64,000 nucleotides of DNA from a virus (Duplodnaviria > Heunggongvirae > Uroviricota > Caudoviricetes): positions 34,711 to 98,710 of the IMG/VR virus record IMGVR_UViG_3300026484_000248; one strand, 5' to 3'. The notes beneath the pieces are model-generated. The model had not been told where the DNA came from. It was given only the letters and a program-made list of their open reading frames with translations, and did no database searches. Positions 5,575 through 55,918 of the stretch are shown one piece after another. A program made the position numbers and the translations under genes. Each line of letters begins with the position of its first letter. Position 1 is the first letter of the stretch.

Positions 5575-6267
5575 TCAAGCCCAAAGTAGATTTGGTATGT
5601 AAGTGTAGTCTATAGTTTCTTTAGTTTCACATTCGGGACAAACCCAGTTATATTCTAATTCAACTTCGTCTACCATTTTTTGATATTTTTCAAATAATTC
5701 GTCAAATATCTTAGTTGGTAATTTATCTATAAATTTATTTAGTTCTCTGTGACTAAATTTATCTTGTAACTCACCATTTATTTCTATAGCGTGTATATGC
5801 AATAAAAAGTCCTGGAAAATGTACTCAACAACTCCTTTATCCATTTTTAAAAAGTCTTTTTCTTTGTTGGTCCTTATAGGGCCCATTACAAATTTTAGGT
5901 CTTTAATCTGCACTTCTTTATAATTTGCGGGTCTATAAGTCATTACTTCAGAAATTTTTACTTTTAAATCTATTTTCTTTCCACAACTTTTACACTCGTG
6001 CTCATCTTCTATAAAATTTGATATACTCTCACATCTGATATCTATAATTAATTTCTTTTGTTCTGATGCTGATAATACAATATCCTTCTCCTCTATAGCA
6101 GGTGCCAATAAAGTATCAAAAATAATTTTATCTGTTATTTCAGAATCGTCTTTTTCTAGAAGCTTAAGATAGTTTCTTTCATCTTTTGCTGTCCATTGTC
6201 TAAATTTAACTTGTTTATCTCCAATTACTGATGTGTAATCATAACCAGATTCATATATTAACGCCAT
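5575..6267 (-). CDS. zinc-ribbon protein (CxxC...CxxC), paralog of 6510..7205; possible tail/baseplate assembly factor
   Basis: The protein is collinear with and clearly similar to the neighbouring ORF (IGDKxxKFxxWTxKxExxYL; two Cys pairs); it sits directly upstream of the tape-measure-like gene on the same strand. Confidence 0.4.
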   Translation of the reverse strand: MALIYESGYDYTSVIGDKQVKFRQWTAKDERNYLKLLEKDDSEITDKIIFDTLLAPAIEEKDIVLSASEQKKLIIDIRCESISNFIEDEHECKSCGKKIDLKVKISEVMTYRPANYKEVQIKDLKFVMGPIRTNKEKDFLKMDKGVVEYIFQDFLLHIHAIEINGELQDKFSHRELNKFIDKLPTKIFDELFEKYQKMVDEVELEYNWVCPECETKETIDYTYIPNLLWA

Positions 6268-10799: not shown

Positions 10800-11612
10800 A
10801 TGCAGTACTTTAACCACAATTCAATCAAAAATTATACTATAGCTCTGTTAGATATGTTTAATGACATTCATATCCCTAGATATAATTCTAAAGGTGAGCG
10901 AATTAAAGATATTAATGTCCCTATTAAATTTGGTAATAGAGATAAAGCTTATATATTATCAGAACACGACCTAGAAAATCTTCATAATGGAAATGTTAAT
11001 ACACTTCCTAGAATGGTACTTGCTTTTAACGGGATGTCGAAAGCACCTCAACGAGATACCAACAAACTCCACAAAATTAACAAAAGAAAAGTAAATGGAG
11101 ACCCTTCCTCCCTAATGTATGAATATCATTATAATGCGGTCGCATACGATTTTACTTTTACTATATATCTTGCTACTAGAACTTTTACAGATGCTACTAT
11201 AATCATAGAGCAAATAGCTCCTATGTTTAGACCTGACATTACATTAAAAATTCAGGAATTGGACATTCAAGAAACTCCTACTTCTGTACCTGTTCAATTA
11301 GGAGATTTTGGAATAGAACTACCTGAAGATATGAGTGAAGAAGAAATTAGAATTATCGAAGTAGATTTCCCTTTAACACTAAAAGGTAATTTATATTTGC
11401 CAATTAAAGATGCTGAAATTATTAAAGAAATTGAAGTTAATATGCTTAATATTGAAAGTACCAGAAATAAAAAAGGAATTGCTTACGAGTTAGAATATAA
11501 AGATGCTATTATTACTGCTAAAAGTACAGAAGGGCAGACTGTTGAAAATATAGAAGAGATTAAAACAGAACTAGAAAATGTTATTCCTTCGTTTGAAGAA
11601 GAAAACAATTAA
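10800..11612 (+). CDS. hypothetical late (virion-associated) protein
   Basis: TATAAATA is present at 10775-10782 with an RBS; the ORF is 270 aa with no recognisable motif. Confidence 0.4.
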   Translation: MQYFNHNSIKNYTIALLDMFNDIHIPRYNSKGERIKDINVPIKFGNRDKAYILSEHDLENLHNGNVNTLPRMVLAFNGMSKAPQRDTNKLHKINKRKVNGDPSSLMYEYHYNAVAYDFTFTIYLATRTFTDATIIIEQIAPMFRPDITLKIQELDIQETPTSVPVQLGDFGIELPEDMSEEEIRIIEVDFPLTLKGNLYLPIKDAEIIKEIEVNMLNIESTRNKKGIAYELEYKDAIITAKSTEGQTVENIEEIKTELENVIPSFEEENN

Positions 11613-13028: not shown

Positions 13029-13579
13029 TAATTCGCCAATCTATAATTATTTAAAGTATTAATTAAATCCATTTCAAAAGTACTAAATCTTCCATAGCTT
13101 TCAAGTATTTCAAAATCTGTTTTTGAAGTATATAAACAAATTGCTCTACCTAATTCTGGTTCCCATTTAAAATTTCCTGTTCTAAAAAGTGCTGCAGTTG
13201 TATAAATTTTTTCTGTAAGAACGATGCTTATTGCTGTTTTAATACCTTTAAGACTATATACATCTTCACAAAAATCAGACCAAGGATAAAAATTCTCAGG
13301 GTCTTGTAAAATATCATTTAAGTTATCTAAATCTTCAGATACTCCGGCATTTAAGCTAATTACAGTTTTATGATTACGACTCCAATCAAATAATATTTTA
13401 TACGCTTCTTCCTTTTCTAAATCAATTAAATCCAATTTATCTTTCTGAGATGGGTTTGGAACATATTTGTTGAAAATCTCAACTGTGCTATGTAATGTTT
13501 GGATTCCTTTTGCCATTGGCGACAACATAAAATGACTAAATGTATAGCATCTTTTCTCTAAATCTTTTGTATTTTTCAT
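13028..13579 (-). CDS. hypothetical protein
   Basis: It is a 183-aa ORF with overlapping start and stop codons with its neighbours. Confidence 0.4.
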   Translation of the reverse strand: MKNTKDLEKRCYTFSHFMLSPMAKGIQTLHSTVEIFNKYVPNPSQKDKLDLIDLEKEEAYKILFDWSRNHKTVISLNAGVSEDLDNLNDILQDPENFYPWSDFCEDVYSLKGIKTAISIVLTEKIYTTAALFRTGNFKWEPELGRAICLYTSKTDFEILESYGRFSTFEMDLINTLNNYRLAN

Positions 13580-13959
13580 TTCTTTCCTTTATTTTGTATT
13601 AAATCAAAAGTAATTATTTTAATATCTTTTATATTCATTGAGTTATTATTAGTAATTGCTCTTATGCCGAATTGATAATTAATTAAACCATTTTCCAATA
13701 AATCTTTTTTATCACCAATAAATTCTATATCTGCTACAAGATTTTCATCTTCAATTCTATAATTTTTACTAATACAAGCATTTATCGAATCAATTTGATG
13801 CTTAGTATTTCTTTTTCCTTTTGAGTCAATTCCACCATTTAATTCTTTATCTTTTAATTGTTTTAATTGTTTTTGAATTTCCTCAAGAACTTCTTTTGAA
13901 TATATTAAACCATTTGGCGAAATAGTTTGCTCATTTAGTTGTCTTATAACTACTTTCAT
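13576..13959 (-). CDS. hypothetical protein
   Basis: It is a 127-aa ORF and the first gene downstream of the non-coding island on the minus strand. Confidence 0.4.
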   Translation of the reverse strand: MKVVIRQLNEQTISPNGLIYSKEVLEEIQKQLKQLKDKELNGGIDSKGKRNTKHQIDSINACISKNYRIEDENLVADIEFIGDKKDLLENGLINYQFGIRAITNNNSMNIKDIKIITFDLIQNKGKK

Positions 13960-14925
13960 TTCTTTCCTTTATAAAAATAAAAATTCAATATTATTAATAA
14001 ATCTCTTTACAAGATTTAACTTTATTTGATATTGAATTTTTATATTTATTGAATATACTACCCTATGTTAAGGTATCGCTTCCTTAATGTTTTCGTTAAT
14101 TTTGCGACTTGAAATCCTCTTCATCCGGCCATAGTGATATTACTTTAGTAATTGTCTTAAAAAGTTATTTTTTTAAGAATTTACTTAATTTTATTTCTGG
14201 TTATTCTCACATAATTTGTATATTTACCTATTATCCTGCCTGGATAATAGGGGCTATATTTAGCCGCTTAGTGGTGAGTAACTAGCCTTTCATCCCTTTG
14301 GACTTCACTGCAAAACCTCAATCCATTCTCGCGCATTAATAGACACATTACAGCATTAACTGCTCCATTGCTGGACTACGCGTAGACGCCTACTTTAACT
14401 CTAAACTATCTGATAACCTGTGTCTTAATTGGGCGATAATTATAATAAAGCGAACTTTTCATTCTATTTTGTAAACACTAAGTTTAAGTACTTTTTGTAT
14501 TCTTTGTTATACCCTTATACCGTTACTCGACGTTATCTTTTACGATATTAATAGTTTATACTAAGATTTACTTAATAAATGATAGGAATGGAGAGATTTG
14601 AACTCATCAACCTTCGGATTTAAGTTCCGCCGCTCTACCTTTAGAGCTACATCCCTATAACTTTTAAGAGCATCTGTTTGTAAACTTCTCTTAAAATTAA
14701 GTGTTTAAGTGTTTAAAATATATCTTAATCTTTCATTGAAATCATTCTTCTGAGTAACTATACGGTGACTTTCTATAATTCTATCTTTTACTCTGTTAAT
14801 AAGATTTCATAATGTAATTTATACTACTGAGTCTGTTTCAACTCTAATATTTTTAGGTAGAGATTTGTTTCTAATTTTAGTCTTACCTATACTACCGTAT
14901 TCCTTATAAATATCTTTTGTTGTCT
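13960..14925 (-). other. ~1 kb non-coding island, locally GC-elevated and hairpin-rich; transcribed leader / candidate structured ncRNA(s) containing the tRNA-like gene
   Basis: No ORF of 60 aa or more exists on either strand; the composition shifts toward GC; it contains the perfect hairpins CCTATTATCC-TGCCT-GGATAATAGG (about 14230-14255) and GGCTA-TATT-TAGCC; an early-type promoter on the minus strand at 14926-14950 points into it. Confidence 0.4.
14583..14656 (-). tRNA. tRNA-like gene (acceptor 7/7 bp, D-arm 4 bp with GG, T-loop TTCAAAT, short variable arm); anticodon loop reads ACUUAAA, giving an apparent anticodon UUA (ochre-suppressor-like); possibly degenerate
   Basis: The minus-strand sequence is AGGGATG-TA-GCTC-TAAAGGTA-GAGC-G-(G)CGGA-ACTTAAA-TCCG(A)-AGGTTG-ATGAG-TTCAAAT-CTCTC-CATTCCT-A. 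The acceptor stem is fully paired with one G.U; the T-stem has only 3 Watson-Crick pairs; C33 is unusual. Confidence 0.5.
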
Positions 14926-14950
14926 AAGTATAATTATAACATAAATAAAC
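14926..14950 (-). promoter_or_regulatory. early-type extended -10 promoter (minus strand TGTTATAAT) driving the non-coding island/tRNA
   Basis: The plus strand reads ctaagtataattataacataaataaac, a palindromic TTATAATTATAA core shared with at least 8 other intergenic sites. Confidence 0.45.
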
Positions 14951-14955
14951 TTAAC

Positions 14956-15534
14956 TTAAACAGAACCTTTAGGATATTTTAATATTTTAGTGATACTTGT
15001 TAAATCTTTTCTCATATCTTTAACTGAATATTCTGAGTTTACTGCGTTTAGGAAATTATCTAGTCCAACATTTTTAATGAACTCTAAAGAACTAACAGCT
15101 ATTTTATTCCAAAATTCACTTGAATGGTATAACCATTCTTCAATTTTATCCGCTATATCATCTGTAGTGACTACTTTACCTCTAGCTATAACAGATGAAC
15201 AACTATACTCTAATAATGTTTCTACATCTTTAATATCTGAAACTTTTAAATAATTAGCAACTCTTGCCTTAACCAGCATTCTATCACCCACATAGCTTAA
15301 TAAAGTCTTATTATTTACTGCATAGCCTTTATAAGCATAAGGTATATTCTTTTTAAACATAACTCCAGTAACTTCTGAGTCGTTCGCAACTTTAACATTG
15401 CCTAAGTAATTCCAAGATTGATTTCTTGAGCCTTCCCAATAACCATCCGAAAATTGGCCTAATAATTCTGAATCTAATAACACCTTCTGAGCTTCGTTTT
15501 CTACTATAATTAACGCTTTGTTTGAGTTTATCAT
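14956..15534 (-). CDS. hypothetical protein
   Basis: It is a 192-aa ORF with a TGTTATAAT promoter 30 nt upstream (15561-15574). Confidence 0.45.
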   Translation of the reverse strand: MINSNKALIIVENEAQKVLLDSELLGQFSDGYWEGSRNQSWNYLGNVKVANDSEVTGVMFKKNIPYAYKGYAVNNKTLLSYVGDRMLVKARVANYLKVSDIKDVETLLEYSCSSVIARGKVVTTDDIADKIEEWLYHSSEFWNKIAVSSLEFIKNVGLDNFLNAVNSEYSVKDMRKDLTSITKILKYPKGSV

Positions 15535-16746: not shown

Positions 16747-17355
16747 TTATTTGCCTTCTTTTTCTTTTTTATCTGAATCTTTTTCTTTTAACTTAAGTTT
16801 AGCCATCGCTTTACCTACTAATGTTCTGTATTCGTCTCTTGCCTCTGAACTACTGCCCCAATTAGTATCAAGTGATTCAACAGCTTCATCTTGAAATTTA
16901 AAAGCAAAATCCATAGCAGGAAGCAAATTTAAGTCCAGATTTTCTACACTATAACTTAATGTTATATGGGGTTTATAATCATCAAATTCCGAAATAAATT
17001 TATATTCTTGTACAAGCGCTTCATTTCGTTTAAGTAAATCTTGTGAATTTATTTCTGCAACTAATGCATCTTTATTTTCCCCAAATAGATTAAATTCTTT
17101 GAAAGTCCCTACTGCAGTATATTCAGCTGGTTCAATTTCCTCAACTTGTGGTTTCTTAGAATAAATTAAGCTGCAATGTAAATCCGTATTAATCTTTTGG
17201 CCTTTAAGATATTTTTCTTGATATTCTTTTACTGCCAGTTCAGTTTCCTCTGATAATTTAACCGATATATAAACCCCGTCCGGAAAATGAACCTCTTCAT
17301 GTTCTTCTCCGGTTTCTATATTATTTTCAGTAATATATTGTCTAAAGGTTACCAT
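16747..17355 (-). CDS. 2H phosphoesterase family protein (LigT / 2',3'-cyclic phosphodiesterase-like)
   Basis: It carries two H-x-T/S-x motifs (DLHCSLIY and KPHITLSY) with the spacing typical of the 2H superfamily. Confidence 0.5.
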   Translation of the reverse strand: MVTFRQYITENNIETGEEHEEVHFPDGVYISVKLSEETELAVKEYQEKYLKGQKINTDLHCSLIYSKKPQVEEIEPAEYTAVGTFKEFNLFGENKDALVAEINSQDLLKRNEALVQEYKFISEFDDYKPHITLSYSVENLDLNLLPAMDFAFKFQDEAVESLDTNWGSSSEARDEYRTLVGKAMAKLKLKEKDSDKKEKEGK

Positions 17356-17635: not shown

Positions 17636-18094
17636 TTACGAACAGCTTTCACAAATATAATTGTCTCCACCTTCTTTTTCTTGTTTTAAATAATAACTTG
17701 TTTTTACTCCTAATTTGAATCCATATAGATGCAATTGAGTTAATTCTAAAAGACTATCGGGTTTTGTGATATAAGTATTAATACTTTGCGCCTGGTCAAG
17801 CCATTTCTGCCTAACTGCTGCATTTTCAATTAAAATAAATTGATTACAACCAAAGCTTCTTTTGTAGAATCTATTATTTATTCTAAAATTTGGAACAAGA
17901 GTCGGTATTGTTTGGGTTCCTTCTTCTTTATAAAAGAAGTCGGCAATTGGTTCTATACTTTCTGTTGCATTACATGCTTTCCCACTTGTATTATGACTTA
18001 TACAACCATTACTTAGTGCATATTCATGCACTTCAGGAACCTTTATATCCCAAGTATGTTCTGTTAATCCATCTGTTATTTTTTTAATTTTCAT
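17636..18094 (-). CDS. nrdA: nrdA fragment 3: C-terminal intein-2 segment (about 35 aa, ..VHEYALSNGCISHN) fused to the NrdA C-terminal extein (TSGKACNATESIEP..HLYGFKLGVKTSYYL..CESCS)
   Basis: The extein aligns with the E. coli NrdA C-terminus (ESIEP, HFYGWKQGLKTGMYYL, terminal Cys pair); the intein blocks F/G end in HN followed by Thr +1; it is in the same frame as 18647..19630. Confidence 0.7.
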   Translation of the reverse strand: MKIKKITDGLTEHTWDIKVPEVHEYALSNGCISHNTSGKACNATESIEPIADFFYKEEGTQTIPTLVPNFRINNRFYKRSFGCNQFILIENAAVRQKWLDQAQSINTYITKPDSLLELTQLHLYGFKLGVKTSYYLKQEKEGGDNYICESCS

Positions 18095-18114
18095 ATATTT
18101 TCCTTTATTATACC

Positions 18115-18372
18115 TTATTGTTCTTGGGAGATTTCAACAATCTCCATATTTTCATCCAAGTCCGCGACTTGAACCCAACCCTCTGAACCATCTTTATATT
18201 TAACAAGTAATTTATGATTAAGTGTGAATTTATAAGAACTTCCATCTTCAAATTCAATTTCCCTAACAGGTTGTTTGCCATTATACCAGATTTTAGTTAC
18301 ATTTTTATCACCAAATCTCGTAGGAATAGTTATTCCCTTTTTTATATATTTACTAACTTTAATTACCTTCAT
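18115..18372 (-). CDS. Hint-domain (intein N-terminal splicing region)-like 85-aa ORF lying between nrdA fragments 2 and 3, in a different frame
   Basis: It has a block-B-like GSSYKFTLNHKLLV (G..h..T..H) and a GWVQVADLDENMEIV segment like intein 1 (GYVQAKELLKTDKL); it has its own RBS and ATG; it lacks an N-terminal Cys. Confidence 0.45.
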   Translation of the reverse strand: MKVIKVSKYIKKGITIPTRFGDKNVTKIWYNGKQPVREIEFEDGSSYKFTLNHKLLVKYKDGSEGWVQVADLDENMEIVEISQEQ

Positions 18373-18646
18373 ATTTTTCCTTTATAATATTTAATACTTC
18401 TTGACTTTTAAAAAATTATTCTCATTACTCCATATTTTAAAAATCTCAAAACTATTATCTTTCGCTAATTTTATTTTTTCATTTTGTATTTTTAAGATTT
18501 CTTCTGAACTTCTTTTACTTTAAGGACATTCCCATTCTTTTATATTTGGATGACAATGAATACATCATAATAATTATATTTAATCATTTTACGCCCACTT
18601 AACTTTATATCCATTTATAAAAATGAAGTAGTAGGCACAATTAAAA

Positions 18647-19630
18647 TCATATATATACTATATCCATACCTTCACAAATTTCCCCTGCTGTTATTTTTAC
18701 TTCTATATTATTTTTTAATATAGTTACTTCTTTATGAGTAGGTATATGCTTAATGTCTCCATTTTCTAAAACAATTCCTATATATTCGGTTTTAAAATCT
18801 AACCATTGTTGGGTTTCTTCATTCATTATTTTATTATAATCTATATTAAAATCATCCATAATATTTTGTAAGGATTTAATGCCTTCATTAGTTTTAATTT
18901 CAGTTTTCATTTCAGAACAGGCGGTTGGAGCTATGGCCATCAGAGCCGCATTTCTTAAACCAGTTACTTTAATTTTTTCTCTTAATTTGTTCCATCTGTC
19001 CATTTTAGGTAGATAATCAGTTAAATTAACTGTTTCTTTATTTGCTAAATCAATTGGTAAAATACCCTCAGCCCATTTTGTTTCGTAGAATTTTTCAAAT
19101 TTGCCTTTTTCCTCTGCTAATTCAGCACTAACTGAAATAATTATATAAGATAAATCATCAAATAATTTGTCTGTTTCTTCTAGTGCCTCTTGTGTATCAA
19201 TAATAATTTCTTTTAACGCTAAGTAATTTGCAAAGTTAAGAACTCCAATACCCAAATATCTATACATTAAGTTTGAATTTTTACCTTCTTTTACTGGATA
19301 GTTAGCAACATCTACAGTATTATCGAGTCCTCTTACAAGAGTTCTAATTAATTGCCATTTTTGTCCTTCATCCATATAAAACCATCTTTCAAGATTTACT
19401 GAACTAAGGTTACATAAAGCAATTTCACCTGCTGTATATCTTTTAACAATTCTTTTTTCTCCATTTTCCATTGTAAATAATTCTTCATTAATTAATTCCG
19501 ACGGTCGTGATGGAAGTACTATCTCTGTGCAGTTATGTACCAGTATATCATTTGCATAAAAATTATGGTTATCTTCTACAGTAATATCATATACAGGCAT
19601 TTCCTCTTCTAAATATTCTATTTTAATCAT
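18647..19630 (-). CDS. nrdA: nrdA fragment 2: C-intein-1 (MIKIEYLEEEMPVYDITVEDNHNFYANDILVHN) + middle extein (CTEIVLPS...LMAIAPTA, about 204 aa) + N-terminal piece of intein 2 (CSEMKTEIKT..., about 90 aa, ends TGA)
   Basis: The extein matches NrdA CLEIALPT..LCTLS.NL..LGIGV.NFA..GILPID..GLRN..ALMP; intein block F/G lies before the catalytic Cys; the start codon has an RBS. Confidence 0.75.
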   Translation of the reverse strand: MIKIEYLEEEMPVYDITVEDNHNFYANDILVHNCTEIVLPSRPSELINEELFTMENGEKRIVKRYTAGEIALCNLSSVNLERWFYMDEGQKWQLIRTLVRGLDNTVDVANYPVKEGKNSNLMYRYLGIGVLNFANYLALKEIIIDTQEALEETDKLFDDLSYIIISVSAELAEEKGKFEKFYETKWAEGILPIDLANKETVNLTDYLPKMDRWNKLREKIKVTGLRNAALMAIAPTACSEMKTEIKTNEGIKSLQNIMDDFNIDYNKIMNEETQQWLDFKTEYIGIVLENGDIKHIPTHKEVTILKNNIEVKITAGEICEGMDIVYI

Positions 19631-19645
19631 CTTTTTTCCTTTATT

Positions 19646-21274
19646 TTATTTATATTCTTTAACATAAACCTTGTTGCCTGAATCATATATTTTTCTATAA
19701 CCATTATTATGCATATTTTCTGCTTCAGTAACATCTGGATTAAAAGTTTCTAATAATCCTTTTAACTTATGTTTTTGGAACTTATTTCTAGACCATAGTA
19801 TGTTTTCTTTAGGATGGAAATAAAAATAGTTAGGTGTAGTATTATATTTAAAAGTGAAGCCTGATTTTATATAGAAATTACCTGTACTCCATCTTCTATT
19901 AGCGTAAGATAAAAGACTTTTAGGTTTATACGTTTTCTCGAAGTACTTAAGCATTCTAGAACCTCCACCTTGTATAGTATAACCTTTTTTAGTGCAGAAC
20001 CTAATAAGTTCATAATCTATATTTTTATTAAACCTAGGCTTACCAAAAGTCATTATAGACATTAGGTTGTCTTCATGATACATTCCTATTTTTATAGAAG
20101 AGTTGCAGTATCCCTGCATATGGTTATCATCAATAAATTTTCTAGCTTCCTTAGTTGGTACTTCTTTTATACTACATTTTCTAGCTCCTATTTTTTTATT
20201 TTTACTTAATTTATCTTCTATCATAGAAACCCATATAGATTTTTTATTTTTATCTAACCATTCATTTTCAAATATATGGAATAGTTGTATTCTTTTTTCT
20301 TCACAAGCTTCAGTTTTAATAAGATGGTAGTTTTTATTTTTAAATTTATTAGAATGCCAATATAAACCATTATATTCAATGGCAAAATTATATTCTTCAG
20401 AATACATATCTAATTCATAAGGTTTTATTATTTTTCTATTATCATATATAAATAAATCCTTAAATAGGGCCTTCATATTATCTGACACCTGTCTACCTAT
20501 TCTTGAAACACTAGAAGCATAAAAACTCATGTTTTTAAAAGCATTATAAGTGCAATTAAAATATTCACATGCAGTATAAATATCAAAATTTTTATTTAAT
20601 ACAAAGTGTTTAATTATAAATGTTTCATTAAAATTATTTAAATTATTAAAATGTTTTCTGGAAGAATTTTTATTTCCACTAAAATCTTTTTTAAAAGAAT
20701 CTAATTGAGCATAACTAGAAACACCATATTTTTCCATCATAGTATTATGAATTTTCTCTTTATTATTATAGTTTTTATCACCATATTTTTCTAATTTAGT
20801 TTTCTTGCTTTTTTCTATATTATTATAGTTTTTATCACCATATTTTTCTAATTTAGTTTTCTTGCTTTTTTCTATATTATTAATACTTGACTGATGGGTA
20901 TTATTAGATATCATAGTATCTTGTGCTTTTTTTCTTGATTCTTTAGACTGTGCTTTTTTAATCACCTTATTATGAATAGTCTTATCCTGAAAAACACTTA
21001 CATATCCGTACTTTTCTAACATTGTTTGTTGAGTCTTTTTAATTCTATTAAGTTTACTACATTCTTTACAAGTTTTATTATACCCTTTATTTAATGAAAT
21101 AAATCGTTTTTTATTGCCACAAGAACATAAACTATCATTATTATAAAAGTCCCATATGAACTTACTAGGTTCTTTCATATAATTTTTTTCTTCTAATGTA
21201 AAAGTGTGATTATTATATCTTCTGCTTTTTTTATTCCAAATAAGATCTATTTTTTCTTTTAATTCTTTTGTCAT
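19646..21274 (-). CDS. free-standing homing-endonuclease-like gene inserted inside nrdA intein 1 (same family as 8341..10113 and 57414..59135)
   Basis: It has N-terminal Cys4 zinc-ribbon modules, a 57-bp tandem in-frame duplication (KTKLEKYGDKNYNN x2), EYNGLYWHS, and a C-terminal module about 90% identical to 8341..10113; it is in the same frame as both flanking nrdA pieces but separated from them by TAA codons. Confidence 0.6.
   Translation of the reverse strand: MTKELKEKIDLIWNKKSRRYNNHTFTLEEKNYMKEPSKFIWDFYNNDSLCSCGNKKRFISLNKGYNKTCKECSKLNRIKKTQQTMLEKYGYVSVFQDKTIHNKVIKKAQSKESRKKAQDTMISNNTHQSSINNIEKSKKTKLEKYGDKNYNNIEKSKKTKLEKYGDKNYNNKEKIHNTMMEKYGVSSYAQLDSFKKDFSGNKNSSRKHFNNLNNFNETFIIKHFVLNKNFDIYTACEYFNCTYNAFKNMSFYASSVSRIGRQVSDNMKALFKDLFIYDNRKIIKPYELDMYSEEYNFAIEYNGLYWHSNKFKNKNYHLIKTEACEEKRIQLFHIFENEWLDKNKKSIWVSMIEDKLSKNKKIGARKCSIKEVPTKEARKFIDDNHMQGYCNSSIKIGMYHEDNLMSIMTFGKPRFNKNIDYELIRFCTKKGYTIQGGGSRMLKYFEKTYKPKSLLSYANRRWSTGNFYIKSGFTFKYNTTPNYFYFHPKENILWSRNKFQKHKLKGLLETFNPDVTEAENMHNNGYRKIYDSGNKVYVKEYK
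20764..20877. repeat. 57-bp tandem in-frame duplication inside endonuclease gene 19646..21274
   Basis: tattatagtttttatcaccatatttttctaatttagttttcttgcttttttctatat is repeated twice and encodes IEKSKKTKLEKYGDKNYNN x2. Confidence 0.8.
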
Positions 21275-21322
21275 TCTTTTGATATCCTGGCAATTATTTT
21301 ATATTTTACTAACTTTGGGCAT

Positions 21323-23014
21323 TTATTCTTTTATATTTAATTTATCTGTTTTAAGCAATTCTTTTGCTTGGACATAACCCCTATTTTCAGTCCATATTTT
21401 ATGTTCGGGAGTACAAACAATATTTTTACCCGTTTTTTCATCAATAATTTTCATTACTCTTGTTTTGGGGTTTGTCATAGCAAAATCTGTAACTATTTTA
21501 TATTCAACTTTTTTAAGTTTTGTATTATATGATTTCACTTTGTCGCCTATTTTAATGTCCTTAAGTTCTTTTGTCCCTTTTTCGGTTTGTACTTTAGTAT
21601 CACCTTTTAAACATAAATTTGAACTACCAATATATCTATTAAGCATTGAAGTGTTATTAACATTTTCTTCATGGAACAAATATATATTACCAGTTTCTGT
21701 TCTTTCTTTCATCATCTTTTCCCAAAGATCTCTCGCTTTAATTTTTTTCTTTTTGATATTTGTTTTATTACTGTACATTTCATAATTTTTATTAAATTCT
21801 TCTCCAAATACACCAACCAATAACGGAGTATCTTTAGGGTCAAATAACCACACTTCTTCATCCATTTCAACTGCATCCAGAAAGTTTTGATTCATTTTCA
21901 TTGCATATTGTAAACCTCTTGCCCTATTTTCATCAGTACCACCATTACTTTTAAGTGATAAAATATCAGTAACATCTAAATGCCACCAAGAGAAGTAAAT
22001 TGCAAGGGCACCTTGCCTTTTCCCGCCTTGATTCCAAGCTTTCATAATACTTTCAAAGAATTTCATAAATGGTACAGGCCCAGAACTATAACCTTGAGTT
22101 CCTTCAATATAACTTCCCCCAGCTCTCATCGCTGTAATATCTAATGCTGTTCCACCTTTAAATTTTGAATAAATTCCCAGGTTTTTACCAGTATCTAAAA
22201 TATTATGACTATCATCTGCTAAAGTATTTAATACACAAGAACTTAATTGCTGCCCAGGAGTTAAAGCATTTAACATAATTGGAGTAGCAACAGTATATTG
22301 ATGTTGTGAAATAGCATCATATAATTCAATCATTTTTTGAACTCTGTTATCCTTTTCGTCAATAGTAAGTGCAATAGCAACTCTCATATAAGATATTTGG
22401 GGTAATTCTAATTTATTTCTTTTACTATAATTAAGACAATACTTATCAAAAAATGTTACAAGTGCTTTATAATTAAAAATTAAATCTCTTTCAGGGTTAA
22501 TTGCAGTATTTAATTGCTGTATTTCATCTTCAGTTAGTTTATTAACTGTAAATTTATCGTAAATTTTCTTTTCAATCCCTTTAGTGAGGATATCTTTTAA
22601 TTCTGGATAAGTATTATGGTCACTTATGTTATAAGTTTCTTTATAATATTCAAGTAATTGTAATTTTGCCGCTACTTCTTCCCACATTGGATTAAGCATA
22701 CTGATTTTATTAACTGCAGTAATGATTAATTGCTTGTACATATCTTTAATATGAATTTCTTTATGTAATTTAACCTTAGTATCTCTGAGTAATTCCTCTT
22801 TCATATATTGATTTGGGCAAGACCAATCAACTACTTTATCTAATTTCTTTGGATGGAAAGGTTCTTTATGTCCTTTCCTTTTTATAATAATTATTTTTGA
22901 TGCTTTTATTTCTTCTTGATTTGAAATATCAATATTTTCCTTATTTTCTACTGCCTGAGACAAAGTGCCTAAAGGCACTTTGTTATATCTTTTTGCTTTA
23001 TTCTTATTACTCAC
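21323..23014 (-). CDS. nrdA: nrdA fragment 1: class I ribonucleotide reductase alpha N-terminal extein (about 467 aa, ends ...IGSSNL) fused to the N-terminal half of intein 1 (CLKGDTKVQT...GKNIVCTPEHKIW..., 96 aa)
   Basis: It has the ATP-cone and RNR large-subunit motifs; SNL is followed by an intein block A (CLKGDTKV) and block B (TPEH) and then a TAA stop; the following catalytic Cys (CTEI) lies in the next fragment. Confidence 0.8.
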   Translation of the reverse strand: MSNKNKAKRYNKVPLGTLSQAVENKENIDISNQEEIKASKIIIIKRKGHKEPFHPKKLDKVVDWSCPNQYMKEELLRDTKVKLHKEIHIKDMYKQLIITAVNKISMLNPMWEEVAAKLQLLEYYKETYNISDHNTYPELKDILTKGIEKKIYDKFTVNKLTEDEIQQLNTAINPERDLIFNYKALVTFFDKYCLNYSKRNKLELPQISYMRVAIALTIDEKDNRVQKMIELYDAISQHQYTVATPIMLNALTPGQQLSSCVLNTLADDSHNILDTGKNLGIYSKFKGGTALDITAMRAGGSYIEGTQGYSSGPVPFMKFFESIMKAWNQGGKRQGALAIYFSWWHLDVTDILSLKSNGGTDENRARGLQYAMKMNQNFLDAVEMDEEVWLFDPKDTPLLVGVFGEEFNKNYEMYSNKTNIKKKKIKARDLWEKMMKERTETGNIYLFHEENVNNTSMLNRYIGSSNLCLKGDTKVQTEKGTKELKDIKIGDKVKSYNTKLKKVEYKIVTDFAMTNPKTRVMKIIDEKTGKNIVCTPEHKIWTENRGYVQAKELLKTDKLNIKE

Positions 23015-24133
23015 TTATAATCCTTTTGCTCTTGTATATGATTCTAATTTACCGTCTGGTATATCATTTTTCATAATACCGATTGAATAAATTGACATAT
23101 CTGATTCTTGTTGCGCTACATTAGATATATTTAAATCCTTTTCGCCTTCAAAATATTGAACTGTATCTGTTTTAATAATATTAAATGGTTTTGCTACACC
23201 TATTGATGATAGTCTATCATCAACATAATATTTCATAAAATCTTCTACAACTCTTTTAGTCAATGTTGGTATATCACCAAAACTTGCTAAATAATCATAA
23301 AACTCTAATTCATCTCTAAGTACATCCAAAAATGTTTTAGTTGCCATATTACTAAACCATTTAGAATTAATTAACTCACTAAATCCTTCTGATTTTGTTT
23401 TTTTGAGTATTTGAATTGTTCCCGATACCATACTTGTATGAATATCTTCATCAAAATTAATTAATTTAATGATTCTTGTAGCACCTTGGATTTTATTATT
23501 ATAATTATTGTTAATAACATAAGTTACCAAAAATGATACATAAAATTTAACACCTTCAAGTGCTAATATACCAACAAGTAATTCTAAAATTATTTTTTTC
23601 TTTTCAGTTTCATCGCTAATACTATCAATATTTTTAACTCTTTTATATAATTCAATTTCATTATTTACTCTTTTTTGAATTTCCGGATAATCAGCAATTC
23701 TATCAAATATTGCTGAAGCATCACTAAAAATACCTCTTAATATATGAGAGTAAGATAAACTATGAATTAATTCAAAATAGCCCTGTGTCTTAAACATCGC
23801 TTCAAACTCAGGATTTGTGCATAAACTAGCTAATATTTCTTCAAGTCCACTATTTTGAGCAGAGTCCATTAATGTTTGAAATAACCAAACCCTAATCATA
23901 ATTTCCTGAATGTATTCAGGCATTTCAAAAAATTTAAGTGCATCATTTGTCATACTTATTTCTTTTGGATTCCAAAAAGCATTTCTTTGTTTTTCTTCCA
24001 TCGCTACTGCAAATGGAAATTTCGGATTATCGTATCTTTGGAAACCTGAATAGGAACCGAAAAATATTCTTTCCTTTGCATTCTTTGGTACTAAATTTTC
24101 AGTGCAAAGAATTCGTTCACATGAACTGCCCAT
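23015..24133 (-). CDS. nrdB: ribonucleotide reductase small subunit (NrdB)
   Basis: The protein shows IFFG...RYD, the ferritin-like di-iron motifs (E..H, FYVSF, EDIHT) and collinearity with E. coli NrdB. Confidence 0.8.
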   Translation of the reverse strand: MGSSCERILCTENLVPKNAKERIFFGSYSGFQRYDNPKFPFAVAMEEKQRNAFWNPKEISMTNDALKFFEMPEYIQEIMIRVWLFQTLMDSAQNSGLEEILASLCTNPEFEAMFKTQGYFELIHSLSYSHILRGIFSDASAIFDRIADYPEIQKRVNNEIELYKRVKNIDSISDETEKKKIILELLVGILALEGVKFYVSFLVTYVINNNYNNKIQGATRIIKLINFDEDIHTSMVSGTIQILKKTKSEGFSELINSKWFSNMATKTFLDVLRDELEFYDYLASFGDIPTLTKRVVEDFMKYYVDDRLSSIGVAKPFNIIKTDTVQYFEGEKDLNISNVAQQESDMSIYSIGIMKNDIPDGKLESYTRAKGL

Positions 24134-46217: not shown

Positions 46218-46420
46218 ATGGCACAAATGTCGCCGGGCGTTCAAGTGAATGAGATTGATTTATCAATCGTAGTACCAATGTTAGGAAATGCAACTGCATG
46301 TTTCGCAGGTGTTTTTACAAAAGGTCCAAGTGATAAATTTTTATTAATCACAAATGGAGAAGAATTAATTCAATATTATGGAGGCCCTACTAACGCAAAT
46401 TATAATGACTGGTCAGTTTT
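46218..46420 (+). CDS. tail sheath protein (T4 gp18-like) exon 1 (3' boundary approximate, somewhere between 46417 and 46431)
   Basis: MAQMSPGVQVNEIDLS..GNATACFAGVFTKGP..ITNGEELIQYYGGPTNANYNDW aligns with the T4 gp18 N-terminus (SPGIELKET...ALAGKF.WGP..I..VTNE.DLV..FG.PT...ADYF); the RBS is AAAGGAGAA. Confidence 0.75.
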
Positions 46421-46992
46421 AAAGGCAGCTTAATAATGACAAAAACTGATATAGAAGAATTTGTTAATCCTAATACAGGAAGACTATCAACAAGAATTAA
46501 GTCATATACCGACTTAAGTATTGAAGAATTATACTGTATATATAATGAAATAGAAAAATTTTACTTATAACAAAGTTAGGTTGATTGTAAACAAACTATG
46601 TCAAGTTAATTTTAATGTAAATGTTCTATTACATTAGAAAAATTATTAAGCTCTTTTAATAAGAGCCGTTCTATATAGTAATATATAGAATAATTAACTA
46701 TTGAATTGCTGGGATCACTTGTTAGGTTCTAATACCACAATATATCTGAAAAGAGTATATGAAGGTTTAAAAAATTAGAAATAGAGTCAATCAGCAGCCA
46801 AGCTACTAAGTCCATATAGGATATGTAGAAGGTTCAACGACTATTCCGAAAGGAAGTACACTAGAAGTCTAGTGGAAGTGGTAGTTGCCCAATGTTTGGG
46901 CAAAGATATAGTCTAGTCTTTATGGAGACATAAAGCAGTTCATAAGAGAACGGGATAAGATTAACGACCTTATTCGAATAAATCGTCCAATG
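46421..46992 (+). mobile_element. group I intron 1 (A element 46700-46813, B element 46831-46945; 5' region holds a decayed endonuclease ORF)
   Basis: GAATTGCTGGGATCACTTG...AATCAGCAGCCAAGCTACTAAGTCC (P3-P6/J6-7-like, compare Tetrahymena CAGCCAAGUCCUAAGUC) is followed by GGTTCAACGACTATTCCGAAAGGAAGTA...GATATAGTC...GGAGACATAAAGCAG (P7 ACGACUA/UAGUC G-site, P9); the terminal ...CCAATG precedes the exon. Confidence 0.7.
46436..46570 (+). pseudogene. truncated endonuclease N-terminal module (44 aa) inside intron 1
   Basis: MTKTDIEEFVNPNTGRLSTRIKSYTDLSIEELYCIYNEIEKFYL matches the N-terminal IY..Y..IE module of 63104.. and 60099.. but stops before the zinc ribbon. Confidence 0.45.
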
Positions 46993-48298
46993 TTATAACT
47001 TTTTACAATATGCTAACAAGTTATTAGTTTCAAGAGCAGTAGATGCGAATGGTACGTTTAAGGATTCAGGAAATAAAATTTATGCAGTAAATGAAGACGG
47101 AAAAGTGGAAGTTACAAACGCTCCATATTATATCCAAGTCGGTTCTGTTGTTAAATTTAATCCAGATCAAGAAAACGAATATACTGTAACTGCTATTGAA
47201 GAACCAACAAAGGCTGTAAAGCAAGTTGATAAAATTAAAATTAATGCTGCTGAAGAAGTAGATTATACTGTTAAAAATAGAAATGAAAGTGTAACTTATT
47301 CTGCTGGTTCTGATGACACAGTTGAAGATATTGCGTCTAACTTAGGTTCTTTAATCGAAAGTATAGATACAAATGCTACTAATGTTGCTGTAGATGGTGC
47401 TGTTATTACAGTTACTGCTTCAATTGCAGGTGTTGCTATGACTAATGAAATTATTGCTGGTAATATGACTGTAACTACTACTACTGAAAATAGTGAAGGT
47501 GAGTCTTACGAGCTAGTATTTGCAGATGTTAATGGTCAAACTGTTGATTTTACACAAAAAGATCCTGATGGGAATATTATAAGTGGTGCTGATATAGGGG
47601 CTCCTGTACTTGTTAAATATGCGGCTCAAAATGCATTAGTATGTGCTCCAAGAGACGGTGCCACTTTAAAAAGTGCTCACGAGTTAAAACCTGAAGCAAT
47701 TCATATTGCAAATGAAGCAGATTATGAAGTACAAGAAATGAGTATTCCAGTTACTGGAAATTCAAAACTTAAATTTATGGCCAAATCAAGTGGTGCATTA
47801 ATGAATGGTATTGAAATTGCTATCGCAAGAGAAGCAGATTTCGCAAGTGGTTCACAAAATGTTTTTAACGGACTTGTATTAAATGATTTCTTTGAAGCTA
47901 AACCTTTAGAGTCTAAGAAAGAGATTGCAATTGTAATAAGAAAAGATAAAAAAGTTACTGCTTCTTACATTGTTTCATTAATTCCGGGTTCAAAAGATTA
48001 CAGAAATAAATCAAATTATATTGAAGATATTATCAACAAATATGATGAGTTAGTTTTTGTTAAAGATAATACAAGTATTAATGATTTACCAGATTCAAGA
48101 TTATATACTGCTGCTAAATTAGCATTAGACGGTACTATAATTACTCCTGCAAGTAATAAAGTTCTTTATACTTCAAATGGTGGAGACGGTTATGTAAACT
48201 TTGGTGATATTGAATTCGCATATGGTTCAGTTTCTGATAATACTATCTTTGGTAAAAGTGCTAATAATACGGATTCTTCTCCTATTAGCTATGCTGCT
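46993..48298 (+). CDS. tail sheath protein exon 2 (about 435 codons; begins within ..YNFLQYANKLLVSRAVDANG..)
   Basis: The open frame starts at 46982; FLQYANKLLVSRAVD matches T4 gp18 FLQYGNDLRVVRAVDR directly after the exon-1 homology; it ends ...SPISYAA followed by TAA and an intron A element. Confidence 0.75.
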
Positions 48299-50272
48299 TA
48301 ATCAAGTAATTGATTAATGAACATTCATCTAATTGCTGGAAACACTCGGTAAGTTTTGGGTACTCGTTTATGAAAATAAGCAGTGATAATCCTAAAAATA
48401 GAGTCAATCAGCAGCCAAGTTAATTCAAATAATAAAATAACAAACAAAAATTAAAAGATACTTTTGGTAGGGTATCTTTTAATTACTACTTTTTTCCTAT
48501 AATTCAATATTTGTAAATTTTTAACAGAAATGATATGGTATATCTATATGCATTTTTATATATGGTGCCTTCTTGAGAGTGTGAAAGTTTTAATTCTTGA
48601 ATTAAAGCATTGTAGTTAGAATCTAATTGTAAAGTGTCAGTAGTCATGGGGTGATTAACCTCTTATCTTTTGATTAATAATAGTCCTGTCACTGAAGTTT
48701 TATCTTAATTAAGCTCTCAACCGTGACTGAGAAAGAGCTTAATTAATATAAAACCTCTTATTTGTTTTATTTAAAAAAGTTATTTTAATCCAAATTCTTC
48801 TTTATCATATGCCTTTTGTAAAGCGTTAAAATATTCCTCTTTTGTATAATCTCCATATTCTTCACTATGTCTTTCTATATGTAATTCGGAATTTAATTAG
48901 ACTTTAAGACTTTTTAATGTATAATTATAATATATAAAGAGATATTTAAATTATTATTGTTAAAAATGTTAATTCAATGATATTGCTAATCCCTAATAAG
49001 GACTACGGAGTATTTAAGAAGAAGTAAGTTAAAAATGTTAATTCAATGATATTGCTAATCCCTAATAAGGACTACGGAGTATTTAAGAAGAAGTAAGTTA
49101 GACTGTTTAAGAAACAAACATTGACTTTTTGGATAACTTAAAATATTGCTAATCCCTAATAAGGACTACGGAGTATTTAAGTAGAAGTAAGTTAAAAATG
49201 CTAATTCAATGATATTGCTAATCCCTAATAAGGACTACGGAGTATTTAAGAAGAAGTAAGTTAGACTGTTTAAGAAACAAACATTGACTTCTTTGACTTC
49301 ATTGAATTGATATTTTTAACTATAATAATTTAATTCATCTAAAGTTTTTTTGAGATTGTGTTGCATCATAATTTTTAAACATTTTGTTCCTTTGAGTAGT
49401 ATTGGAAAATACTTAATTTTTAATGGCTAACAAGCGGATTTTATCTTCAATTATTTCTATGCTTTTCATTGCTTCTTCGGTATCCATTTCCCTTAATTCC
49501 TTTATTTTATCGTAATATCCCTTAAGTTTTATCTCAAAACTGCTTTCTAATAAAATTCCCTAAATGTTTTCATGATTTACCCTTTTATAGATATTATAAA
49601 TAATAATGTAGTGATAATATATGTATATGTATTATCCTCAAGTTATTTGAAATTAAAAGGTTCAACGACTATCCCGAGAGGGAGTAGGGCCAAGTGGTCC
49701 GAAATGGTGAATATCCTCACTACCAAAATAGAGGATAAAGATATAGTCTGATCTATATGGAGACATATAGCAATCTAATTTGTTATCAACGATTAGATTT
49801 TGGTATAAGAATTAACGAGCTTATATGAACATAAATGAACAAAGAAGAAGTTGATCAAAAAGAAATAATATACTAAAGGTAGTAGGTATATTTTTTTGTG
49901 GTCCTACTATATAGTAATATATAGAAAGAATTATTTGAATTGCTGGAACATCTTGATAGTTCCAAGTAGGATATTAGGCAGTGATGACCTAACGACCCCT
50001 AAAAATCTTGGAAATAGAGACAATCAGCAGCTAAGTTAATTAAAACGTTTTCAACAGAAGATAATTTACAAATTATACTCTTTGATAAATAGAAAAATGG
50101 ATTAATTAAAAAGTTCAACGACTATCCCGAGAGGGAGTAGGGTGCAAGTGCATTCGAAGCGGATAACATCCTGTATATCTAACAGGATGATGATATAGTC
50201 TAGTCTTTATGAAGACATAAAGCAGTTCATAAGAGAACGGGTTTGAAGTAACGACTCAAATTGAATACAACG
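48299..50272 (+). mobile_element. composite intron region: intron copy 2 (A 48328-48428, B 49659-49775, with 310-bp tandem repeats and ORF debris) followed by or nesting intron copy 3 (A 49935-50040, B 50112-50225)
   Basis: There are two full sets of A/B core blocks; no credible coding exon lies between B2 and A3 (stops in all frames within about 30 nt), suggesting a nested twintron-like arrangement or a decayed copy. Confidence 0.55.
48960..49290. repeat. tandem repeat inside intron 2: four copies of core ATATTGCTAATCCCTAATAAGGACTACGGAGTATTTAAGAAGAAGTAAGTT arranged as two ~125-bp double-units
   Basis: The repeat is visible directly: ...gttaattcaatgatattgctaatccctaataaggactacggagtatttaagaagaagtaagtt... 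occurs 4 times. Confidence 0.8.
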
Positions 50273-50366
50273 ATAGATATAGTTATTGCAAATGAAGCAG
50301 CGCGTACTCAGGCGGGAGCATTAGCATCAGATAGAGCGGATCAAAATTACGGTTCGGTTGCGGCGT
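50273..50366 (+). CDS. tail sheath protein small exon (..IDIVIANEAARTQAGALASDRADQNYGSVAA; boundaries approximate)
   Basis: It is a GC-richer coding island between intron B3 and A4; the frame is open only here; it ends AA followed by TAA like the other exons. Confidence 0.45.
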
Positions 50367-51676: not shown

Positions 51677-51877
51677 AATATAAAGTGTATCTGTTTCATT
51701 GGAGCAAGGTTCGAAGATGTTGTTGGTTTACAAAGTGCTAAAATAGTTGAAAATCTTATTAAAGATGCTCAAACTGGTGAATTAAATAGTGGTAATACTG
51801 CTAACTCATTCAACGCATTTTTTGGTAACTACAAATATCAATACGACAAATTTAATGATAAATTCAGATGGGTTTTA
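51677..51877 (+). CDS. tail sheath protein exon (NIKCICFIGARFEDVVGLQSAKIVENLIKDAQTGELNSGNTANSFNAFFGNYKYQYDKFNDKFRWVL; boundaries approximate)
   Basis: It is the only open frame between intron 4 and intron 5; it is flanked 3' by TAA TAG and an A element. Confidence 0.45.
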
Positions 51878-52257
51878 TAATAGAAGCTCCGGTTTATAGT
51901 AATATAAACTTGAAAACGAATCTAATTGCTGGAACATCTTGTTAAACTTATATACCACAATATACCTGAAAAGAGTATATGACGGTTAGAAAAATATAAG
52001 GTAGAGACAATCAGCAGCCAAGCTACTAAGTTATATAAGGTAGATATAATATGTAGAAGGTTCAACGACTATTCCTGAAGAGGAAGTACAGTGCAAGTTT
52101 AATGGCGCTGGAAATGGTTCGCATCCCGAAACGGATGAAGATATAGTCTAAACTATGTGGGGACATATAGTGGTATATAAAAACAAGGACCAAAAAAAGT
52201 TTTTATATAAACCAGATCTTAAAGTTGCGTTTAAGATTGGAATATTTTTTATAATTC

Positions 52258-53520: not shown

Positions 53521-53580
53521 TTTGTTGGTCCTTAATTTTTACTTTTACTTATATAATCAAAAAGAATTATAAAAAAATTG

Positions 53581-53800
53581 TTCTGTAGCAGGTGATGTTG
53601 CTGGTCTTAGAGCTGATACAAATACTTCATTAAATACTTGGTGGGCATCTGCTGGTCTTGATAGAGGTCAAATAAAGAATGCACAAAAAATTTCTTTCAA
53701 TCCTAATTTGGGGCAAAGAGATTTCTTATATAAAAATAAGATTAATCCAATTGTTTCTTTTCCGGGTCAAGGGAATGCTATAAAATATTGTAGCGCAGCA
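53581..53800 (+). CDS. tail sheath protein exon (..SVAGDVAGLRADTNTSLNTWWASAGLDRGQIKNAQKISFNPNLGQRDFLYKNKINPIVSFPGQGNAIKYCSAA; boundaries approximate)
   Basis: It is an open frame between intron 5 and intron 6 with the sheath C-terminal-domain flavour (NPIVSFPGQG); it ends AA followed by TAG and an A element. Confidence 0.5.
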
Positions 53801-54329: not shown

Positions 54330-54573
54330 AATGATTAAAAAATGTAATGATTATAAAGTAATTAGTTGTAAATGTTAATTTCAAGACAAAATCGTTCTAA
54401 AATTAGAAATTATTAAGTAATATTTTGTTATAATAATTTTACTTTTATAAATACTATTATATATTTTAATTATGATATTTAGGGGTTTTGTCAGGCTCAC
54501 TCTAAATATCATAATTAAGATATAAAAAAATTAAACGAGCCTGACAGCCGTTTATAATTAACGGAGATTAACA

Positions 54574-55917: not shown

Positions 55918-55918
55918 A

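Follow-up and report, generated by a model that had tools for sequence, protein, structure and literature searches.

A UUA-anticodon tRNA-like gene and a conserved structured RNA in a putative stable-RNA operon of an uncultured T4-like phage

Can a phage that ends most of its genes with UAA also carry a tRNA that reads this codon? The question is raised by a non-coding island on the minus strand (13960-14955) of a 64,000-nt stretch of the virus record IMGVR_UViG_3300026484_000248, hereafter the window, which is part of a 117-kb metagenomic contig (ENA ERZ27262648). A tRNA-like gene in this island displays a UUA anticodon and was put forward, from the letters alone, as a phage-encoded reader of UAA. 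The comparative analysis presented here leads to a different reading, which we favour with somewhat better than even confidence: the island would be a tRNA and stable-RNA operon of the T4 type, harboring a weak or decaying UUA tRNA together with a conserved, undescribed RNA of ~300 nt. The locus is an ordinary kind of feature with two unusual contents, namely this RNA and a lone, sub-canonical tRNA with an ochre anticodon.

The tRNA-like gene and its integrity

Infernal profiling of the whole window against all 4227 Rfam families yields a tRNA match (RF00005) at 14583-14656 on the minus strand, with 46.5 bits against a gathering score of 29 and an E value of 9.5e-7, whose alignment spans the full model (1-71). 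These are exactly the limits at which the original prediction had drawn a cloverleaf, and its elements are recovered as well: an acceptor stem AGGGAUG/CAUUCCU with seven of seven pairs (one G-U), a D-stem GCUC/GAGC with loop UAAAGGUA and G18G19, a short variable region (AGGUU), a T-loop UUCAAAU and a discriminator A. U8 and A9, the UUC of the T-loop and A58 are present; CCA is not encoded. The anticodon stem GCGGA/UCCGA, of which the CGGA/UCCG part had been recognised, bears a G27·A43 mismatch and encloses the loop ACUUAAA, which places C33 ahead of U34-U35-A36, and both Infernal and relaxed ARAGORN agree on this assignment. The T-stem had been credited with three Watson-Crick pairs, which is what ARAGORN reports, whereas Infernal draws five pairs and one bulged U, GA(U)GAG/CUCUC.

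Features that are nearly universal in tRNAs are broken at four points, i.e. U14 in place of A14, C33 in place of U33, the G27·A43 mismatch and the irregular T-stem. ARAGORN, proposed as a check, detects no tRNA anywhere in the window in its default and -ps modes, and at -ps90 calls tRNA-Stop(tta) at 14583-14656, with a weaker T-stem and an optional eighth acceptor pair.

About 60 loci of related phages (L-numbered here) were examined for comparison, including L017 (Ga0256842_1017024), a 99%-identical sister strain. The tRNA of the latter has the same anticodon loop and carries G10A, which turns the G10:C25 pair of the D-stem into A·C, and A59C in the T-loop; it scores 36.6 bits. These two changes fall within 74 nt, against zero substitutions in the adjacent 422 nt (14175-14596), and the remainder of the island, outside 14175-14596, differs by 8 substitutions and 2 indels. 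No counterpart of the UUA tRNA exists among the ~60 related loci, nor any tta, cta or tca anticodon in these relatives. A parent was sought among their 44 distinct tRNAs, where the best identity, ~51/74 (~69%), lies at background level. Two parents suggested by local likeness, tRNA-Ser(UGA) from the T-arm and tRNA-Leu(UAA) from the CUUAAA loop and the UUCAAAU T-loop, were dropped, since D-arm and acceptor stem differ in both cases and the variable arm is short. Searches of IMG/VR with an exact 36-mer of the tRNA and a 19-mer of its D-arm gave no match, and the D-arm 19-mer found in GTDB genomes two chance matches only, which are not tRNA homologs. The gene at 14583-14656 most likely derives from a real tRNA and is now weak or decaying; the suspicion that it may be degenerate fits better than a suppressor, given the G10A change in the sister strain and the lack of a counterpart in the relatives.

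Reading of UAA codons

Under the standard code the window is densely coding, and TAA ends 47 of the 67 automatically chosen open reading frames (ORFs) and 43 of the 62 curated genes (~70%). Read-through tails are short after every stop, with medians of 7 codons for TAA, 4 for TGA and 8 for TAG; a further TAA is the usual next stop in frame, and back-up stops are not in excess. Short tails after all stops, together with a following stop that is mostly TAA, give no sign of adaptation to ochre suppression. No conserved gene interrupted by TAA was found in the window, and the late baseplate genes of 1742, 1320 and >1563 aa, followed into the 10 kb past the window, are unbroken in the standard code. 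With TAA as the main stop (43/62), no interrupted gene and no such tRNA in the relatives examined, the claim of a phage-encoded tRNA that reads UAA, i.e. of an ochre suppressor, is without support in the sequence evidence.

One in-frame series on the minus strand, 24580-18647 (nrdB, nrdA-N, a homing endonuclease gene and nrdA-mid), was considered as a product of TAA read-through and rejected, as its junctions are canonical split-intein motifs (in nrdA, ...SSNL/CLKGDTKV... and ...ILVHN/CTEIVLPS..., the slash marking the junction). Split inteins and trans-splicing account for the series, and read-through is not needed. Within this region (17636-24133, minus strand) nrdB is followed by a fractured nrdA, with an N-extein ending in SSNL and an intein N-fragment (CLKGDTKV...) whose TAA is at 21323. 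A free-standing 542-aa HNH homing endonuclease gene (19646-21274) lies between the nrdA halves, and the intein C-fragment (...ILVHN/CTEIVLPS) is fused to the next nrdA extein (18647-19630), which seems to end in a second intein N-fragment (APTA/CSEMKT...).

Recoding in phages affects TAG and TGA, and a large survey of jumbo phages is without TAA recoding (PMC13037316). Suppressor tRNAs go with recoded codons in phages, and Borges et al. propose that acquisition of a suppressor can precede recoding (10.1101/2021.08.26.457843). A stop-anticodon call in a phage has precedent in the tRNA-Sup-TTA predicted, although unvalidated, in the standard-code Klebsiella phage phiKp24 (PMC8386662). With the Sup-CUA and Sup-UCA tRNAs of crAss-like, Lak and jumbo phages and the Sup-TTA of phiKp24, the gene described here shares an anticodon that matches a stop codon, and with phiKp24 also the standard code of its phage (PMC8386662; 10.1101/2021.08.26.457843). 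Recoded phages differ in showing in-frame stops and a low coding density under the standard code, neither of which is seen in the window phage, and here the cognate codon is the most used stop and not a rare one. The gene also differs from the phage suppressor tRNAs by its several non-canonical core positions, with which it is missed by default ARAGORN. It illustrates that a stop anticodon by itself does not establish recoding.

A single substitution can convert a sense anticodon into UUA, and laboratory ochre suppressors are weak and tolerated. Examples are E. coli supG/supL (tRNA-Lys, UUU to UUA), supB (tRNA-Gln) and supC (tRNA-Tyr), as well as T4 psu1 (tRNA-Ser). They have a canonical body with U33 and were selected in the laboratory, whereas the present gene is natural and has no identifiable parent.

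A conserved structured RNA in the GC peak

The island was described as free of ORFs, and none of at least 60 aa occurs in 13960-14955. It was also described as raised in GC, which does not apply to the island as a whole (28.8% against 28.6% for the window); higher values are limited to 14200-14499 (36-41%) and the tRNA (45%), with 21-25% at the island ends. As judged from sequence comparison, this GC peak is a conserved structured RNA and not the tRNA. The original prediction was right on the hairpins and on the anatomy of the tRNA (UUA anticodon, C33, minus strand, promoter-like site upstream), and missed both this multi-helix RNA and the synteny with the tRNA clusters of T4 and of related phages.

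The RNA spans at least 14514-14227 on the minus strand (~290 nt, possibly ~310) and comprises at least 11 helices. By blastn against the related loci, 14254-14445 is 72-74% identical to non-coding DNA of L008, L006, L012 and L015, in which the flanking protein is only 54-64% identical. Three lineages with the RNA are supported by nhmmer, and L023 provides the fourth. Since indels are not multiples of three and ORFs are lacking, a coding explanation of this conservation is excluded. The whole RNA lies in the stretch (14175-14596) that is free of substitutions between the window and its sister strain. RNAalifold proposes 39 pairs, 11 of them compensatory. A hand-curated model of the core (14249-14429), with 8 helices and 36 pairs, is 95.5% paired, and 13 of its 36 pairs are changed on both sides across the three lineages; slide controls of 1-3 columns leave 0-1 compensatory pairs, and none of 500 shuffles matches the observed value. 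A covariance model built from the core alignment finds a divergent, 3'-truncated version at 2295-2459 of L023 (25.3 bits, E ~1e-3), in which P1, P6, P8 and the two hairpins with GCAA and UAAU loops persist and show new compensatory pairs. It should be noted that the folding energy of the single sequence is unremarkable in the GC peak (z=-1.39), as it is in the tRNA (z=-1.28), so that the case for the RNA is the comparative evidence; the sole outlier of the island is its AT-rich 3' end (z=-3.75).

Concerning the core helices, P1 (AGACACA/UGUGUCU) joins 14419-14425 with 14341-14347. A GNRA-capped hairpin reads UCCA-GCAA-UGGA in the window, CUCC-GCGA-GGAG in L006 and UCUC-ACGA-GGGA in L008, a further hairpin bears an invariant UAAU loop, and the internal loops of the P5-P8 arm contain the invariant GGUUUUGC and GCUAGUUAC. 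The hairpin P9 (14252-14265), which suits the window sequence and covaries, replaces a long-range helix GCCYR/UAGSC suggested by RNAalifold. Ahead of the core, the P0 hairpin (14486-14514), GGGUA/UACUU with the A-rich loop UAACAAAGAAUACAAAAAG, covaries across lineages, being GUGCAU/AUGCAU in L006, GAGUG/CACUC in L023 and AGUAC/GUAUU in L008. A conserved (C/U)UUAGUGUUUAC comes after P0, and its first 6-7 nt pair just 3' of P5, ~210 nt away. The 5' strand of this long-range helix, ACUUAGU (14483-14477), is followed by a conserved GUUUAC (the two covering 14471-14483), and its 3' strand is at 14266-14272. The helix reads CUUAGU/ACUAAG in the window, UCCUAGU/ACUAGGA in L006, GUUUAGU/ACUAAAU in L008 and ACUUAAU/AUUAAGU in L023, i.e. 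6-7 of 7 pairs form in each of the four lineages, with compensatory change at 3 positions. The last helix, P10 (14227-14251), is a perfect hairpin of 10 bp, CCUAUUAUCC/GGAUAAUAGG; it lacks a following U-tract and is conserved as structure only (CCAAAUAAA/UUUAUUUGG in L006, CCAUAAAU/AUUUAUGG in L008).

The proposed Rfam search of 13960-14950 bore out the tRNA and returned no other family at E<=10 in the island; none besides tRNA appears at E<=1 in L006, L008, L015 and L023. RNA-motif patterns run over IMG/VR recovered a single contig, the already known L015. Several identities were considered and rejected. RNase P RNA was suggested by GAAGUCC and GGCUAGUUAC, but covariation of the GUCC/GGAU hairpin excludes a P4 helix, and Rfam returns no match. 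A transfer-messenger RNA (tmRNA) is found by neither ARAGORN nor Rfam, and an 11-nt complementarity to E. coli tmRNA is probably due to chance. A group I intron is contradicted by the absence of any RF00028 match in the island at E<=10, although six such introns elsewhere in the window score 73-88 bits. The complementarity concerns the conserved 5' motif of the core at 14431-14441 (GCCCAAUUAAG in the window, GCCUGAUUAAG in relatives), which in L006 and L008 could pair without mismatch to 11 nt of E. coli tmRNA (CUUAAUCAGGC), although E. coli is not the host; the 3' arm of the RNA in addition shares AGGCUAGUU with the adjacent tmRNA sequence (a probe sequence printed in PMC9697503 shows the match). 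On the covariation and conservation described, the RNA of ~290-310 nt is to be regarded as an undescribed, strongly covarying family found in a small clade of uncultured T4-like phages.

Location of the island and related systems

Marker genes of the T4 type are found along the window, i.e. the gp15 sheath stabiliser (10800-11612), Acb1/57B (16747-17355, minus strand) and the gp20 portal (61509-63038), and baseplate genes follow just past it. The gp15 is <40% identical to that of any isolate, with top matches among T4-likes of Vibrio and Campylobacter. A 192-aa ORF immediately upstream of the island (14956-15534, minus strand) serves as synteny anchor, as its close homologs sit directly upstream of tRNA arrays. 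It has 24 metagenome homologs, and homologs with 46-82% identity are followed by 1-17 tRNAs in L003-L006, L010-L015 and L018-L024. The arrays are Thr-Val-Met in L003, seven or eight tRNAs in L004 and L005, Trp-Met-Arg-Arg-Ser-Met in L012 and L015 and a single Arg in L008, while L010 has 17 tRNAs surrounding the ORF homolog. The island hence occupies the slot of these arrays, downstream of the same 192-aa ORF and Acb1, which identifies it as the tRNA/stable-RNA operon of the phage; from this gene order, it appears as the operon of a deep-branching T4-like phage that has been reduced to a single tRNA-like gene. No second tRNA is found within the window (ARAGORN, Rfam) or in the 10 kb past it, and the island holds no remnants of the small ORFs of the relatives.

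Downstream, a 127-aa ORF (13576-13959, minus strand) has an N-terminus whose homolog in L012 comes after the RNA and a terminator. Acb1 (anti-CBASS) lies ~1.8 kb upstream of the island, and an Acb2/Tad1-like gene adjoins in relatives (L004 1515-1739, L006 1542-1778); these neighbours suggest that the RNA operon lies within an early, anti-defence-rich region. The island DNA, in its window, L006 and L008 versions, has no match, near or distant, in 50,697 isolated phage genomes, and IMG/VR scans anchored on either flanking ORF alone returned nothing.

The T4 tRNA cluster shows the same order of Acb1/57B, small ORFs, co-oriented tRNAs, one or more stable non-coding RNAs and the next genes, being arranged as 57A, 57B, ipI, trna.4-.2, eight tRNAs, rnaD and rnaC. 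Its RNAC (species 1) and RNAD (species 2) are likewise non-coding RNAs from the tRNA region, on the 3' side of a co-oriented cluster, and their roles remain unknown (PMC3014915, PMC9697503). The new RNA is nevertheless a different one: its model (R1) has no match in T4 68500-74500 at E<=10, no likeness is seen by eye, it is a single molecule of ~300 nt where T4 has a pair (139 and 119 nt), and a tRNA-like 3' end such as that of RNAC is missing. T4 also has eight ordinary tRNAs, as opposed to the single stop-anticodon tRNA here. GOLLD and ROOL belong to the large ornate RNAs; they occur in phages and prophages, often beside tRNA islands, and their structures, which form RNA cages, are known, whereas their function is not; one GOLLD example sits downstream of a tRNA-Met (PMC12286853, PMC5737381). 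The new RNA shares the location beside tRNA islands and also comes after a tRNA-Met in the L006/L012/L015 lineage. It differs from both in its lack of any Rfam match at the thresholds given above, in its helices and motifs, and in length (~300 nt, against ~580 nt for ROOL and >800 nt for GOLLD).

Possible roles of the two RNAs

In the proposed scheme, transcription from an early-type promoter at 14961-14933 would yield a non-coding polycistronic RNA, from which host RNase P, with RNase Z or exonucleases, would cut out two products. The first would be a tRNA-derived RNA of 74 nt with anticodon UUA, lineage-specific, sub-canonical and not visibly constrained, most likely a weak or decaying tRNA of presumably low activity, and not a device for reassignment of UAA. 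The second, the ~290-310-nt RNA (14514-14227) with its GNRA tetraloop and long-range closing helix, would be the selected product and would explain the GC peak; it would be followed by a candidate 3' pseudoknot and a terminator. Several observations weigh against parts of this scheme. The tRNA-like gene keeps all four stems, with 20 of 21 pairs in the Infernal fold, and its 46.5 bits lie inside the range of the tRNAs of the relatives (34-75 bits), and heavy decay is thus not apparent; a count of two strain differences in 74 nt is too small as a sign of relaxed constraint; and no tRNA remnants occur in the island at Rfam E<=10, which means that the gene may be maintained or recently acquired instead of a relic. 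TAA-interrupted genes or more tRNAs could reside in the remaining ~41 kb of the 117-kb contig. As for the large RNA, it is known from only four lineages, of which one is a truncated and weak match (25 bits), and the 18 of 36 pairs that are compensatory once L023 is included profit from an alignment fitted to the model, which favours structure.

A chance origin of the cloverleaf in AT-rich non-coding DNA is effectively refuted. Its ordinary folding energy and the silence of default ARAGORN would agree with such a fold, but the E value refers to all Rfam families and the full 64 kb, the score exceeds the gathering threshold by 17 bits, U8, G18G19, UUC, A58 and a complete acceptor stem are in register, and the position is precisely that of the tRNA arrays of the relatives. 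A working ochre suppressor, reading UAA and, through U34 wobble, UAG, and kept weak by C33 and the odd T-arm, is unlikely, though it deserves more weight. A host synthetase recognising U35 and A73 (LysRS and GlnRS are candidates) would have to charge such a tRNA, and low-level read-through of the dominant stop would extend particular proteins or rescue nonsense mutations. The cloverleaf is intact and well over the Rfam threshold, its 7-nt loop is unambiguous and the same in both strains, and the gene lies on the strand of the neighbouring genes behind a good promoter match, in the slot of functional tRNAs in relatives; the short tails after TAA (median 7 codons) would make weak suppression cheap, and both the phiKp24 prediction (PMC8386662) and the proposal that acquisition may precede recoding (10.1101/2021.08.26.457843) are in line with it. 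On the other hand, TAA ends ~70% of the genes, none of which requires read-through, back-up stops are not in excess, and U14, C33, G27·A43 and the T-stem bulge are each unfavourable for decoding; the gene is not conserved beyond one phage, whose sister strain breaks G10:C25, and surveys report TAG and TGA but no TAA recoding in phages (PMC13037316).

Also unlikely, and perhaps by a shade more, is that the cloverleaf is kept for a non-translational role with an incidental anticodon, either as a decoy for an anticodon nuclease or a tRNA-sensing defence, or as punctuation that attracts RNase P and RNase Z, so that the structured RNA downstream is released and stabilised. In all four lineages the conserved RNA indeed lies downstream of at least one same-strand tRNA, and the window phage has lost all ordinary tRNAs of the slot while keeping one cloverleaf beside the RNA. 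The distance between the two is 50 nt in the window, against ~140-160 nt in the L006 group; in L008 and L023 it reaches ~600 nt, and such variation of the spacing, from 50 to 600 nt, speaks against a role of this kind. RNAC and RNAD of T4 come from the transcript of the tRNA region (PMC3014915), and relatives have tRNA-repair-type genes, Thg1-like and of the CCA-adding-enzyme family; yet G10A in the sister strain would weaken a structural signal too, and the ACUUAAA loop is not linked to any known nuclease specificity. A weak or decaying tRNA beside a selected RNA therefore remains our preferred reading.

A bolder combination, in which the ~300-nt RNA would represent a novel class of elaborately folded phage RNAs linked to tRNA islands, as a smaller functional cousin of GOLLD/ROOL, and would be paired with a working, deliberately weak UAA/UAG-reading tRNA, as an early module tuning termination at the dominant stop of phage and host, is a long shot. 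If true, natural ochre suppression would for the first time be seen in a phage with the standard code. An active UUA tRNA would likewise be without precedent as a natural reader of the most frequent stop codon in such a phage, but the evidence argues against activity. The more durable result is the new, strongly covarying RNA family with many helices that lies where tRNA arrays end in a clade of uncultured T4-like phages; as a third and smaller RNA in a tRNA-island context, it may offer a more tractable handle on the roles of RNAC/RNAD, GOLLD and ROOL-type RNAs.

Leader and 3' region of the operon

A promoter directed into the island had been proposed, and a promoter-like site is present at 14961-14933 on the minus strand, consisting of GTTTAA, a spacer of 17 nt and an extended -10, TGTTATAAT; generic matches of this kind occur at chance frequency in the AT-rich window DNA, and its function as promoter is putative. 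The motif TGTTATAAT(TATA), i.e. TGTTATAATTATA, also lies at intergenic sites of relatives (blastn of island positions 47-101 against L003/L004/L010). The GTTTA(C/A) -35 resembles the T4 early -35. The leader that follows (14657-14932) is AT-rich, unstructured (z=+0.08) and unconserved, except for a hairpin at its end.

Perfect hairpins had been reported for the island, and three are found, of 10 bp (P10), 9 bp (14155-14178) and 9 bp (14662-14696), besides a 21-nt inverted repeat with 95% complementarity. The hairpin at 14662-14696 (minus strand; UUUUAAGAG ... CUCUUAAAA) stops 5 nt ahead of the tRNA 5' end and is not kept in relatives; it could affect RNase P processing. The one at 14155-14178 lies in an AT-rich variable spacer (14136-14226, minus strand) that separates the RNA from a second conserved element and measures ~5 nt in the L006 group and ~160 nt in L008.

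This second element (14061-14130, minus strand), read directly from the sequences, can tentatively form an H-type pseudoknot with covarying stems in three lineages: (G)UCGC ... UUAAGG-AA-GCGA(U)-A-CCUUAA in the window, GCCG ... UUAGG-GAAA-CGGC-AA-CCUAA in L015 and CCGU ... CUAGGG-UUCACC-ACGG-AUAG-CCCCAG in L008. The change U14107C of the sister strain would weaken its stem 1. Group I intron and riboswitch readings of the element were rejected, with no Rfam matches and with a promoter before the next gene in relatives. In relatives an intrinsic terminator comes directly after the element, and in the window the 21-nt inverted repeat (13971-14049, minus strand), AT-rich and followed by a U-run, looks like a terminator. 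L017 has a 78-nt deletion (13976-14053) that takes out most of this repeat.

Additional observations

The six group I introns mentioned above (Rfam, 73-88 bits) are found within ~11 kb (46645-57347, plus strand), between an ORF for an N-terminal fragment of the Gp18 tail sheath (46218-46433) and the portal gene (61509-63038), and the sheath/tube gene region seems split into many exons. Large ORFs without Pfam matches at 47105-48301, 50558-51481, 54574-55917 and 57414-59135 may be intron homing endonucleases or exons.

Among the relatives, L008 carries at 5669-5773 a tRNA scoring 57 bits (Rfam) whose anticodon loop is enlarged by an insert of ~32 nt, and which ARAGORN detects in intron mode only, as Leu(taa); this may be an intron-containing phage tRNA. 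FliM-, FliN- and FliG-like (flagellar switch) genes, together with Thg1-like genes, lie upstream of the 192-aa ORF homolog in L007 (2416-4226) and L062 (2676-4833), and L064 encodes an enzyme of the PolyA_pol/CCA-adding type. Sub-threshold Rfam matches (48-52 bits, where 59 is the gathering score) to HPnc0260, an antisense RNA of Helicobacter, at L006 4211-4354 and L015 2374-2528, both on the minus strand, overlap a phage tRNA-Met and its 3' flank. Together with the 28.6% GC and the similarity of gp15 to Campylobacter phages, these matches hint at a host among the Campylobacterota.

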